A DNA stretch of 64,000 bases from Candidatus Zixiibacteriota bacterium. Lineage in GTDB: Bacteria; Zixibacteria; MSB-5A5; GN15; JAAZOE01. Each line of letters begins with the position of its first letter. Positions within the stretch are counted from its first letter, which is position 1. Under the pieces are notes generated by a model. It was not told the DNA's origin. It worked only from the letters and a program-made list of their open reading frames with translations, and made no database searches. Both the position numbers and the translations under genes were made by a program. The stretch lies in NCBI GenBank assembly GCA_043819555.1, contig JBDREQ010000039.1:1453-65452 (forward strand). The letters are read 5' to 3'. Shown here one piece after another: positions 637-51,490 of this stretch.

Positions 637-1395
637 CTAATCTATACTTAACTGATGGGCAGAAGTAAATAATCTTCGAATCGTTAATTGGGCGGAAATG
701 ATACCGGTGACCGTCACTGCGGAGGCCAGCATATAGCCGACGATTATTTGAATTAGAACCGCCTTGAGAGGCGATGCTCCGGCCAATATCATACCTGTCA
801 TGGCTCCCGGCAATTGCACAATACCGACGATTTTTAGAAAATTTAACAGGCTCAGCATTCCTGCCTTTATAGACGCCCGATAATATGGATGCGAGGCCTG
901 ACGCCAGCTTTTCCCTAATGACAGCGATGTTTCTATGGCCAGTCTATTGGTTTTAATTTCAGAGTACAACCGCTCCATCACCAGAGCCGCACAATTCATA
1001 GAATTACCGATAATCATCCCTCCAAGCGGTATTATATAGTGAGCTTCGGGGCGGATTATTTGAACGGCTAACATTAGTCCGAGGGTAACTGTCAGAGCAG
1101 CAATGATTGCCACAGAAGCCAAAAACCAAGCGTGATTGATCTGGGGTACCCAGCGTGAAGTGGTGTGGGCGCCGACCATGACCATGATAATAAGCGTTCC
1201 CAGGATTGCAAAAATGTTTTCTAAATCAAAAATGAATTCAAGAGCATAGCCTATGGCAACCAATTGAATAAAGGAACGAAACACTCCAACAACGAGCTGT
1301 TTTTCTACGCCGATTCTTTGCCATCTTGTCAGAATAATCGCAAGAATCATTAATAAGACCGCAAAACCGACTTCTTTAAAACCGACATCAATCAT
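637..1395 (-). CDS. fetB: Iron-export ABC transporter permease, FetB/YbbM family
   Basis: RSFIQLVAIGY, IIPLGGMIIGNSMN, VGIVQLPGAMTGMILAGASP motifs. Confidence 0.85.
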   Translation of the reverse strand: MIDVGFKEVGFAVLLMILAIILTRWQRIGVEKQLVVGVFRSFIQLVAIGYALEFIFDLENIFAILGTLIIMVMVGAHTTSRWVPQINHAWFLASVAIIAALTVTLGLMLAVQIIRPEAHYIIPLGGMIIGNSMNCAALVMERLYSEIKTNRLAIETSLSLGKSWRQASHPYYRASIKAGMLSLLNFLKIVGIVQLPGAMTGMILAGASPLKAVLIQIIVGYMLASAVTVTGIISAQLTIRRLFTSAHQLSID

Positions 1396-2147
1396 CGCAA
1401 ATCACCGTTTATAAATTTCCGGGAGATTTCATTCATGGGGTTTTTGAATATCTCATCCGTTCTTCCCGATTCAATCAACCTGCCATCAGCAATGATTAAA
1501 GAATTCCCGCCCATTCTCAACGCCTGACCAAAATTATGGGTAACGATAATAAGGGTTAACGCAAGCTCTTGATTCAATCTCAATAACAATTTTTCAATTG
1601 TGCGAGCGGCCCCGGGATCAAGGGCTGATGTGGGTTCATCGAGAAGGAGAATTTCCGGTTCCATTACCAGAGACCGGGCCAAAGCGACTCTTTGTTTTTG
1701 ACCAACCGATAGTTTTTCAGGATCGGCATTAATAAGTTGAGGATCAAGTCCGACCATATCAAGAAATCCGGCCAGTGTTGTTGAATGAGAATCATTCCCC
1801 TCGGGCAATCCGTATGCCAAATTGTCCAAAACCGTACCCGGAAACAAATATGGAATCTGAAATGTTTTCGCGATTCGGCGCCTCAATTCCAGGACGGGGT
1901 ATGATTCCATCGGCGAATTATGAAACAGGATATCACCTGAGGTTTTTTCATCGAGCCGATTCAACAATCGCAACAGAGTGGTTTTTCCCGCCCCGGAAGG
2001 ACCAACAATTGAATAGATTTCATTCTTATTAAACTCACACGATACCGAATCAATTATCATGCGGCTGCAGGATTTTTCCGATACGGCTCTTGATAGATTA
2101 ATGAGTTTTAGTAAAGCGGAGTCAGAATTATTTAAATCGTCAGACAT
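1392..2147 (-). CDS. ABC transporter ATP-binding protein (FetA-like)
   Basis: Walker A GPSGAGKT, signature LSVGQKQR, Walker B LLLDEPT; 4-nt overlap with fetB. Confidence 0.9.
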   Translation of the reverse strand: MSDDLNNSDSALLKLINLSRAVSEKSCSRMIIDSVSCEFNKNEIYSIVGPSGAGKTTLLRLLNRLDEKTSGDILFHNSPMESYPVLELRRRIAKTFQIPYLFPGTVLDNLAYGLPEGNDSHSTTLAGFLDMVGLDPQLINADPEKLSVGQKQRVALARSLVMEPEILLLDEPTSALDPGAARTIEKLLLRLNQELALTLIIVTHNFGQALRMGGNSLIIADGRLIESGRTDEIFKNPMNEISRKFINGDLR

Positions 2148-49338: not shown

Positions 49339-49692
49339 ATGAAATGGCATAAAATCATTATGGGATTATTGGTTTTTGTTTTGGGAATAACAATCTCATG
49401 CGATAAGGCCGGCGATGATCATAAAGCGATGGATTTCGCCGGAAGAGTGACCGAGACGGATACTGCGGTTTACCTTGAAGGCGTAATCGTCACCGACAGC
49501 CAAAAAGATGCCGTCGATACAACCGATGAAAACGGATACTTTACCCTCCGCGAAATTAATTTTGAGAAGCACATGGTGTCATTTGAAAAAGAGGGATATA
49601 TAAAACTTGAAATGGAAATCGATTACCCTGGAAGTTTGTCCCACCCACTAGTTAGCAAACATGTGATCCTGGAAAAGGCGGAGGATGAATAG
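49339..49692 (+). CDS. Small lipoprotein with carboxypeptidase-regulatory-like beta-sandwich
   Basis: SD AGGAGG, lipobox TIS-C, TTDENGYF, FEKEGY. Confidence 0.7.
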   Translation: MKWHKIIMGLLVFVLGITISCDKAGDDHKAMDFAGRVTETDTAVYLEGVIVTDSQKDAVDTTDENGYFTLREINFEKHMVSFEKEGYIKLEMEIDYPGSLSHPLVSKHVILEKAEDE

Positions 49693-49729
49693 TCGGCAAT
49701 TATTATAGAATTTATTTTATATATACGTA

Positions 49730-50455
49730 TTATTTCCAAGATTCTGGACGGGTTAGATATTTCCCATTAGGTAAAGGTACACGATCTGGTAATTGGCTAC
49801 TTTCTAAATGCCACTTTAAAATTTGTTTACAATTGGCTTTCCCGACTAAGAATCGTAATGATCCAGCGGTTTTTCTATTTGGCACCGCTAAAATAATTTT
49901 CTTTTGAGGGTATATCATGTTAATTAGTTTTATTATAGGCTCAAAATCGGTATCTCCAGACATTAATAATGCTGTGTCATATTCATCAGCATTAGCGCCA
50001 TGCAACATTTGAATAGCAATATTAACATCAGTCTTCTTCTCTTCAAATGTATAGCCGATCGTATATCTTCCGTTTATCCAACCTTTGAGAACCTTAAACC
50101 TCTTCTTGCTTGCATTGTCCTCAACAATAAATGTTCTTTCAATAGACTTAAACTTACCAAGTACCGTTTTAACATTTCGTGTATTCAACGCGCGAATGAA
50201 TACTTGATGTCGCTCAATTTTCTCGGGCGCCCACTTAGCTAATGCCGTAAAATAATAAATAGATTTTATTTCAGAATTTTCAGGTAAAAAATATTTCCCC
50301 AAAATTGAATAATCCAACCACTTATATTTATTAAATCCAGGTGTTCTATCTAAGAAATGATATACATTGAAACCATCAATATATACTGAAACTCTATTCG
50401 GAGATAATTTGATCTTTTCATATTTCTTAAGATAGCGTTTGGATATCTTTTCCAT
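49730..50455 (-). CDS. NYN-domain (LabA/DUF88, PIN-like) putative ribonuclease
   Basis: YIDGFNVYH, EEKKTDVNIA, SGDTDF acidic motifs; visibly AT-richer than neighbours; start 50455 or 50461. Confidence 0.88.
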   Translation of the reverse strand: MEKISKRYLKKYEKIKLSPNRVSVYIDGFNVYHFLDRTPGFNKYKWLDYSILGKYFLPENSEIKSIYYFTALAKWAPEKIERHQVFIRALNTRNVKTVLGKFKSIERTFIVEDNASKKRFKVLKGWINGRYTIGYTFEEKKTDVNIAIQMLHGANADEYDTALLMSGDTDFEPIIKLINMIYPQKKIILAVPNRKTAGSLRFLVGKANCKQILKWHLESSQLPDRVPLPNGKYLTRPESWK

Positions 50456-50483
50456 ACGCAATCAAATTCAAAAGACATATAAT

Positions 50484-50549
50484 AAAAAAAGCCCAAGGTC
50501 ATGCCTTGGGCACCAAAGGGCTCGAAGACCCAAAGGATGTATACTTTTC
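50484..50549 (-). ncRNA. Candidate short structured leader/antitoxin RNA upstream of NYN gene
   Basis: Lies between a promoter and the terminator GCCCAAGG-N5-CCTTGGGC-U7; contains two CCTTTGG direct repeats. Confidence 0.5.
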
Positions 50550-50555
50550 ATTATT

Positions 50556-50584
50556 ATTATCGTCACAGATTTAATAATTGTCAA
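50556..50584 (-). promoter_or_regulatory. sigma70 promoter upstream of NYN leader
   Basis: TTGACA (50584-50579), 17-nt spacer, GATAAT (50561-50556). Confidence 0.7.
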
Positions 50585-50728
50585 GTCAATTATTAGACAA
50601 AAATATAGGATGAATTGTTCCCTAAAACTATTTTACCTTAATTATCAATAACTTACAGGCCTGCTCTTACTATTTATAAGATAACATAAATTCGTTTTTA
50701 ACAACAATTTTCAATTGATTTTGAGCCT

Positions 50729-51490
50729 TCATTTCTTAAAATACTCCGCCAGCGTATCGCGTAAATCGGAGCGGTCAATGTTTCGATACAATACACCCTG
50801 GTGAGCCAGTGAAATCTCGCCGGTTTCTTCAGATATTACAACCACAATCGCATCTGATTCTTCCGTTACGCCGATGGCCGCTTTATGGCGCATACCATAT
50901 AGTTTCCTGTACCGTGGATTTTTCGTCAGAGGAAGGGTACAGGCGGCAGCGGAAATATATTCACTCGAAATAATTACGGCTCCATCATGTAGCGGAGTAT
51001 AAGGCGTAAACAAAGTTGTAATGACTTCAGCCGATAATTGAGCGTTCAGTATCTTTCCAGTTTCAATAAAATTCTTCAGGCCGACTGACAGTTCAATAAC
51101 AAGAAGTCCTCCGTATTTCAATTCCGACAGTCGTATCGCCGCCCGGGCGACTTCGTCGATAATCTTCGTACCCTCATATTTAAAAATCATTCGAAATACG
51201 CCACTATGCCCCATCTGAGCCAGCATCCCGCGCAGTTCCGGCTGAAATATAATCACAAGAACGATAATACCAACCGTCGCGAAGCGTGTAAACAGCCACA
51301 TCAAACCTTCGAGACGAAACCAAAAAGCAATAAAAGCCAAAGATAAGACCAAAATCAAGCCTGTAATCATTTGGGCTGACCGAGTGCCCTTCATCAATGT
51401 CAGGAGCTTATAAATGATATAGGCCACGATAAGAATATCGAGTAAATCAATTAATCGAAATTTGATAAAACCAAGTGAAAATAGTTCCAT
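50729..51490 (-). CDS. cdaA: Diadenylate cyclase CdaA
   Basis: Three TMs, IFQPELR, PLHDGAV, GMRHKAA, SEETG. Confidence 0.93.
   Translation of the reverse strand: MELFSLGFIKFRLIDLLDILIVAYIIYKLLTLMKGTRSAQMITGLILVLSLAFIAFWFRLEGLMWLFTRFATVGIIVLVIIFQPELRGMLAQMGHSGVFRMIFKYEGTKIIDEVARAAIRLSELKYGGLLVIELSVGLKNFIETGKILNAQLSAEVITTLFTPYTPLHDGAVIISSEYISAAACTLPLTKNPRYRKLYGMRHKAAIGVTEESDAIVVVISEETGEISLAHQGVLYRNIDRSDLRDTLAEYFKK

Follow-up and report, generated by a model that had tools for sequence, protein, structure and literature searches.

A covarying two-hairpin RNA linked to NYN ribonuclease genes: a candidate type III-like toxin-antitoxin cassette in a Zixibacterial genome

Introduction

The closest described counterparts of the locus treated here are ribonuclease toxins controlled by small RNAs. 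In the type III loci toxIN, cptIN and tenpIN, a promoter is followed by an antitoxin RNA, a terminator and the gene for a ToxN/MazF-like RNase, and the antitoxins, built from tandem RNA units, are tandem pseudoknots (PMC3401426). The AbiF/RCd22 system, as outlined in PMC12373285, is built from a promoter, a short hairpin RNA with two motifs and an intrinsic terminator, with read-through into the RNase toxin gene; RCd22 acts in cis as well as in trans, through direct binding, and AbiF has been linked structurally to ancestral Cas13. A further group, comprising the DUF3800-I to -XI, drum and skipping-rope RNAs, consists of terminator-ended RNAs that accompany one protein family, on either side of its gene and in either orientation (PMC5737381). 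On the protein side, LabA/DUF88 NYN proteins are abundant, NYN.COG1432 is listed as "function unknown" (PMC5499597), and one bacterial NYN protein is reported to be a sequence-nonspecific ssRNase (10.1101/2024.04.08.588522). HEC-09 (PDLC04163), which is described as a single, Hma-embedded gene without an RNA partner and with an NYN fold like that of MARF1, gave E. coli no protection against any phage tested (10.1101/2024.01.29.577857).

The cassette described here lies in a stretch of 64,000 nucleotides from a Candidatus Zixiibacteriota bacterium, referred to below as the window. On its minus strand, a promoter is followed by a predicted two-hairpin RNA, a terminator and an intact NYN gene. 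Our preferred reading, in which we have moderate confidence, is that this is a type III-like toxin-antitoxin cassette whose two-hairpin RNA binds and inhibits the predicted NYN RNase; as part of the same reading, the two-part cassette would have been acquired horizontally. The basis is sequence comparison, which covered the promoter, the RNA fold, the terminator, the active-site residues, the linkage of RNA and gene, the free orientation of the RNA and the patchy spread.

As read from the sequence, the window cassette has the type III order of promoter, RNA, terminator and toxin gene, which it shares with toxIN, cptIN and tenpIN, and it has in common with AbiF both the layout and a location on mobile elements. 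Tandem RNA units, as in the three type III families, are found in a few NYN homologs. The protein, however, is an NYN rather than a ToxN/MazF-like RNase, and the RNA consists of two nested hairpins, mostly in one unit, rather than of tandem pseudoknots. Membership in toxIN, cptIN or tenpIN therefore fails, there being no ToxN-, CptN- or TenpN-like toxin, no pseudoknot signal and a single unit in the window. Membership in the AbiF family also fails, with no Abi_2/HEPN protein and no Rfam match to the AbiF motif RF03085: the AbiF toxin has a HEPN fold whereas the toxin candidate of the window is NYN/PIN-like, and in the NYN cassette the terminator hairpin is part of the repeated unit, which can also be inverted or placed downstream. 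The DUF3800, drum and skipping-rope RNAs resemble the NYN unit in their terminator ends and their either-side, either-orientation linkage, but they accompany another protein family, and the unit has no Rfam match to them. HEC-09 belongs to the same protein family as the window protein; the window copy lies outside any Hma locus, flanked by cdaA and a lipoprotein gene. The antitoxin of VapBC is a protein encoded next door. VapBC and other PIN-like toxins of type II loci share with NYN the PIN-like RNase fold and the acidic active site (PMC5499597), but the NYN family, unlike VapBC, has no conserved flanking partner gene.

The protein family is already known, as NYN.COG1432 and HEC-09, and its putative RNA partner appears to be new. 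The full-text literature searched gave no description of an NYN-linked RNA or antitoxin, although the supplements of PMC5737381 and PMC11109978, or the Cell 2025 AbiF paper, could contain the motif; the terms NYN, LabA and DUF88 do not occur in the body of PMC5737381, PMC11109978 or PMC8632094, nor in one supplement of PMC8632094. A table in PMC8040213 mentions NYN five times; the candidates concerned are 39-61 nt long and lie no more than 5 kb from NYN proteins, most of which carry LabA_like_C/OST-HTH or are of the YacP type.

Layout of the cassette in the window

The features of the locus are collected in Table 1. The promoter had been recognized in the initial annotation as TTGACA-17-GATAAT on the minus strand, and it is indeed present at 50584-50556. 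It agrees with the consensus at 11 of 12 positions, better than any other of the 19 promoter-like sites between 48500 and 52000; shuffles of that region average 11.3 such sites, so the number of sites is weak evidence when taken alone. The RNA length of about 66 nt given there holds when counted from a start near 50549, but the letters quoted for it make up 55 nt. The two CCUUUGG repeats to which it drew attention are the two arms of P1, with the 3x3 U-U internal loop, and the NYN reading frame, placed about 30 nt past the U7 tract, has its ATG 29 nt past it, at 50455, with an in-frame TTG at 50461.

Table 1. Coordinates of the cassette and its flanks in the window.
Feature	Position	Strand	Basis
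-35 hexamer TTGACA, predicted cassette promoter	50579..50584	-	Sequence; TTGAC invariant in 5 aligned leaders
-10 hexamer GATAAT, spacer 17 nt	50556..50561	-	Sequence
Predicted ~66-nt small RNA, candidate antitoxin	50484..50549	-	Start inferred ~7 nt past the -10 box, end placed at the U tract; family model matches
Single-stranded 5' motif ACAUC (last C is the first P1 base in the window copy)	50536..50540	-	Sequence, folding
Hairpin P1: CC...GG base, 3x3 U-U internal loop, UUCG-containing loop	50513..50536	-	Folding; family covariation
Hairpin P2: CCC...GGG base; also the stem of the intrinsic terminator	50491..50511	-	Folding; family covariation
U7 tract of the terminator	50484..50490	-	Sequence
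NYN (LabA/DUF88, PF01936) predicted ribonuclease, 241 aa, HEC-09 family	49730..50455	-	Pfam, PADLOC, predicted fold
Low-GC (31.8%) insert from the cdaA stop to the convergent lipoprotein gene; variable slot	49693..50728		Comparison with relatives
cdaA diadenylate cyclase, upstream flank, outside the cassette	50729..51490	-	ORF, Pfam
Small lipoprotein-like gene (CarboxypepD_reg-like), downstream flank	49339..49692	+	ORF, Pfam

Folding of the RNA segment gives z = -2.5, with 1 of 200 shuffles equally stable. P1 is a weak hairpin in the window copy, and in the predicted ensemble of the full-length RNA the terminator pairs have probabilities of 0.93-0.999. The gene had been described as AT-rich, and its GC content is 33.1% against 43.6% for the genome, within the lowest 0.35% of 4574 genomic windows. 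P2 is the sole terminator-like site in the interval between cdaA and the NYN gene, and in this genome it may have the further effect of halting transcripts that run on from the cdaA operon.

The RNA unit as a covarying family

Homologous loci were taken from the best 80 genome matches, 13 viral matches and the best 80 metagenome matches, and 169 with enough flank were left after four truncated loci had been dropped. The unit found at these loci runs from a promoter through UCAUC, a hairpin with CC...GG feet, usually one C and a hairpin with CCC...GGG feet to a U tract. Among the matches listed, it lies upstream of the NYN gene and on the same strand at 142 of the 169 loci, 60 of which were used to train R1, a covariance model built from a structure-blind MAFFT alignment of leaders. 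By model, the rest divide into seven loci with a weak upstream match, three with a divergent unit, one with a downstream unit, one with a convergent unit and 15 without a hit. At held-out metagenome loci R1 matches upstream in 51 of 78, and model R2 recovers 19 of the 27 misses, again upstream. By their record titles, the homologs with loci among the matches listed come from about 20 phylum-level groups. A promoter-like site (at least 8 of 12 matches) precedes 103 of 121 distinct units but only 54 of 354 shifted null positions, and 80 of these 103 promoters end 11-16 nt before P1.

The RNA is nearly constant in length, at 60-70 nt, with variation confined to the paired stems and no variable guide segment. 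Stems and loops vary in sequence, and the invariant part consists of the 5' UCAUC tail and the C-rich and G-rich feet of the two adjacent helices; the consensus UCAUC is found in 66 of 124 units and the ACAUC of the window in 11 of 124. Covariation was assessed on 61 leaders. They came from a set of 79, out of 91, for which a parser had detected a pair of hairpins, and picking them in this way inflates pairing. In the structure-blind MAFFT alignment of these 61, all 18 pairs change on both sides (10 of 10 for P1), and 77.1% of cells are paired. Shuffles gave 62.7% (0 of 500), and slid controls 29-55%. The P2 stem covaries too in the family alignment, as do the held-out metagenome matches of R1, in an alignment fitted to the model. 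G-U cells outnumber A-C cells by 117 to 34 in the leader alignment, so the fold is strand-specific. No pseudoknot or loop-loop signal was detected, the top covarying column pairs being those of the nested stems. P1 and P2 of one locus may share the same loop, which would make them two like binding sites; the test gives p = 0.001 for 95 units, p = 0.004 at 60% protein identity and p = 0.19 at 50%. A search of Rfam 15 gave no match at gathering score, with a best E of 2.1 in the window region and only tRNAs at 14 homolog loci. By these comparisons, the RNA is a covarying family without an Rfam entry, and would be new even if the antitoxin idea fails.

The window's own RNA copy is, on the sequence comparison, a divergent member of this NYN-linked family. 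Under R3, a model built without the window's clade, it scores 22 bits and is the only match in the window (E = 0.027), but genome-wide it is the third of four matches (E = 0.65), and a sequence-only profile gives E = 17. Its membership in the family follows from its position and from four related leaders, two of them nearly identical, which keep the promoter, a CAUCC or AAUCC start and both stems with compensatory changes.

These results bear on the plainest account of the hairpin, by which P2 is an ordinary terminator of the cdaA operon, an objection raised in the initial annotation, or a DNA palindrome, and P1 is incidental. That no other terminator-like site separates cdaA from the NYN gene fits this account, as does the lack of genome-wide significance of the window copy taken alone under the held-out model; but the closest relatives keep promoter, P1 and P2 in other contexts with compensatory changes, the family as a whole covaries with an excess of G-U over A-C, and in one relative with an empty site (G002), where the lipoprotein-like gene lies directly beside cdaA, the RNA element is absent. 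Since the unit is conserved, and covaries in unrelated contexts, we take the account to be largely refuted and give it hardly any weight.

A possible antiterminator, formed by the 5' segment and the 5' arm of the terminator, had also been proposed from the window copy. There the pairing is feasible: at -9.5 kcal/mol it is the lowest-energy fold of the 47-, 50- and 54-nt prefixes of the nascent RNA, and it is absent from the full-length ensemble. As a family mechanism the antiterminator switch was rejected, the pairing within a unit averaging -4.07 kcal/mol compared with -3.92 for mismatched loci (n = 124), with equal means and only 12 of 124 units reaching -8 kcal/mol.

When weak matches are included, the unit is a same-strand leader at 149 of the 169 loci (about 88%), with the start codon a median of 12 nt after the end of the model match. 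Some RNases are known to regulate themselves through the leaders of their own mRNAs, as with the leaders of rnc and rne. By analogy, a non-toxic NYN protein might bind or cut the two-hairpin leader of its own mRNA and so set its own level, the short RNA being a by-product; the predominance of the leader position fits such a scheme, as does the fact that RCd22 represses abiF in cis as well (PMC12373285). The evidence on the other side comes from the units that have left the leader position, described in the next section.

A scan of 151 genomes of the phylum returned 14 model matches, eight of which, including seven of the best eight, adjoin an NYN homolog. The other six (one strong, five weak) have no NYN gene within 1.5 kb. 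The strongest match of the scan (L190:1501-1568, minus strand, E = 2e-11) is among these six; it has no evident promoter and lies between two direct repeats of about 125 bp, and the same genome has an NYN-linked copy elsewhere. It is likely, from this arrangement, that the orphan unit is a deletion scar. At another locus, L197, a weak unit-like element (1501-1568, minus strand, E = 0.0016) precedes a DUF3800 gene (820-1467, minus strand), a member of another family tied to small RNAs.

Two further observations concern other NYN genes. A second, distant NYN paralog in the window's genome has upstream of it a single C-rich/G-rich hairpin that resembles P2 (L094:1415-1445, on G000:C9) and does not match the unit model; other NYN subfamilies may have RNAs of their own. 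A variant of the unit, in which the first hairpin is longer (L204:3880-3990), precedes the NYN gene of many Klebsiella plasmids, a gene that sits near IS26, RES and HNH genes. At four plasmid or prophage loci R2 gave no convincing match (best full-length E = 3.3), and the units there were recognized by eye and by folding.

Units outside the leader position and in tandem

The unit lies off the leader position at 10 loci, three of them clear by the held-out model and seven weak or recognized by eye. In L098 (G038) an intact NYN gene has a clear divergent unit (E = 2e-6) with its own promoter, TTGACT-19-TATAAT, and the unit of L100 (G006) is divergent in the same way. Weak divergent units were found by model in L067, L075 and L076, and by eye in L068 and in the Thermus plasmid locus L205. 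Downstream convergent units occur in L178 (E = 0.016) and, by eye, in the prophage locus L207, while L170 has a downstream unit on the same strand (E = 5e-4); neither L170 nor L178 has a unit upstream of the NYN gene. A script found promoter-like sites (at least 8 of 12 matches) for seven of the 10 off-position units. When orientation is mapped on a protein tree built with FastTree, four changes are required for the divergent state, at least three of them forced by branches with support of at least 95, and two for the convergent state. Because these states arise repeatedly on the tree, the unit was re-oriented several times and kept.

Tandem arrays were found at a few loci. L086/L087 contain three tandem units, each starting with UCAUCCC, and a U-rich tail follows only the last of them. 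Two to three copies occur in L082 and two in L024. Inside the arrays P2 is repeated without a U tract. An automatic parser finds tandem units in 2 of 148 cases compared with 8 of 393 in the null set, which is not above the null, and the arrays rest on the repeated motifs and on model matches (E = 0.0026 and 0.004), seen in a single lineage and in L024. A search of E. coli genomes for the tandem-array locus L086 gave no match.

The relocated, inverted and tandem units together point to an RNA that acts in trans; they fit one that works by itself on the protein, and on these sequences it is probably more than a leader. Downstream, convergent and divergent units cannot be sense-strand leaders of the NYN mRNA, and a leaky terminator before the gene, together with the variable, defence-type slots described below, fits a toxin better than a self-regulating RNase; for these reasons we consider autoregulation in cis unlikely, though it deserves to be kept in mind.

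Divergent or convergent units can also be read as cis-antisense, since they could overlap NYN transcripts. By a type I-like scheme of this kind, the RNA would pair with the NYN mRNA, UCAUC meeting the context of the AUG, and block translation. UCAUC is complementary to GAUGA, and weak ribosome-binding sites are common, 67 of 136 genes reaching -4 kcal/mol. The pairing itself shows no excess: among 136 same-strand upstream units the 5' segment pairs with its own start at -5.99 kcal/mol, compared with -5.90 for permuted pairs (p = 0.30), comparison with the starts of other genes gives p = 0.42 (n = 118), and with the usual layout RNA and mRNA are of the same sense. Antisense control therefore seems to us highly improbable.

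A different role in trans would make the RNA serve the NYN protein as cofactor, scaffold or dedicated substrate, within an active ribonucleoprotein or a sensor, comparable to the DUF3800-associated, drum and skipping-rope RNAs. The DUF3800-associated RNAs, too, lie to one side of their gene or the other and face either way (PMC5737381), and the computed evidence does not separate inhibition from activation. A guide-like part that varies from unit to unit is, however, lacking in this RNA of fixed length, and a terminator between RNA and gene predicts an excess of RNA, as it does for antitoxins (PMC3401426). We regard a cofactor role as distinctly unlikely, and the preferred reading remains that of an inhibitory RNA.

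Genomic setting and spread

The initial annotation correctly placed the gene among housekeeping genes, but the slot itself varies between relatives. Of 41 related genomes, 6, counting that of the window itself, have a match to the window NYN protein, and none of five relatives has the NYN cassette in the slot after cdaA. A genome of the same genus has an AbiEi/AbiEii pair there; the remaining four have, one each, a SatD-like protein (below the cut-off) with a DUF3307 protein, an omptin, an unassigned protein and an empty site. With five states in five relatives (site right after cdaA, window 50729-50693 region; L105, L106, L107, L108, L109), the comparison marks this site as an insertion hot spot in the window's group of relatives. 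At the boundaries of the window insert, the only repeat found is a match of 8-9 nt.

More widely, NYN homologs were found in 407 plasmid records, at 13 viral loci and in three phage records. No recurrent partner gene emerged among 150 neighbouring ORFs of 79 loci; a neighbour of the RM, TA, CBASS, GmrSD, DarT or SIR2 type occurs at 13 of the 79, a count without a baseline. Individual settings include a cassette with its RNA between the hsdS and hsdR genes of a type I RM system (L028), a cassette immediately preceded by another NYN-domain gene (L036:505-1125), and an NYN gene between the integrase and the immunity repressor of a mycobacterial prophage (L207:2504-3124, gene 6 of prophiGD43A-1).

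The NYN protein

The window protein matches Pfam NYN PF01936 with E = 2.8e-12 and 47.8 bits (cut-off 24.2) and the PADLOC HEC-09 model (PDLC04163) with E = 2.6e-45; all 46 aligned homologs match HEC-09. Its matches in Pfam, PADLOC and the PDB are only of the NYN type, and NCBIfam gave none. The predicted structure (pLDDT 93) finds 2qip, 5yaa and 6fdl as best folds, and resembles VPA0982 and the NYN domain of MARF1. The acidic residues D27, D143, D168 and D170 are intact, and they are kept in 171, 172, 174 and 174 of 174 proteins, respectively. Close database homologs are labelled Zixibacteria.

A long beta-hairpin insertion (NYN residues ~101-140, window ~50155-50035), possibly a site for zinc or for contact with RNA, contains a CxxC in 135 of 174 homologs. 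In the window's clade it is replaced by a longer, cysteine-free hairpin.

Proposed mechanism and significance

The type III-like layout of promoter, RNA, terminator and RNase gene that had been proposed for this locus proves to be conserved and covarying, and it accompanies the NYN gene from one unrelated setting to another. Alignment and covariation of homologous upstream regions, the check suggested with that proposal, thus came out in its favour. The initial annotation had left a choice between an RNA-antitoxin module and a self-attenuated one. The former gains support because units are relocated, inverted and in tandem and because an AbiE pair occupies the slot in the nearest relative; self-attenuation by an RNA switch is unlikely as a family mechanism because the antiterminator pairing is not conserved. 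The type III-like reading is weakened by a published screen in which HEC-09 did not protect its host.

On the preferred reading, the cassette would work as follows. The promoter would make much of the short RNA, and leakage through the terminator would give a little NYN mRNA. The NYN protein would recognize the invariant part of the RNA, namely the 5' UCAUC tail and the C-rich and G-rich feet of the helices, and the bound RNA would keep the RNase off. Should host transcription fall or the cassette be lost, the RNA would decay first, and the freed, broad RNase would cut cellular RNA and arrest growth, in the service of phage defence or of cassette maintenance.

If this reading is correct, the unit would be the first RNA antitoxin for a PIN-like fold in the literature searched, and the missing half of HEC-09. 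The RNA-controlled toxin systems, a class that includes AbiF, would gain a new fold on the toxin side and another on the antitoxin side. A dedicated RNA partner would offer a direct and cheap handle on the function of the LabA/DUF88 NYN proteins, and a switch made of a small RNase and a 60-nt RNA would be attractive for structural work. Even without an antitoxin role, the unit would constitute a new covarying RNA family spread over about 20 phylum-level groups.
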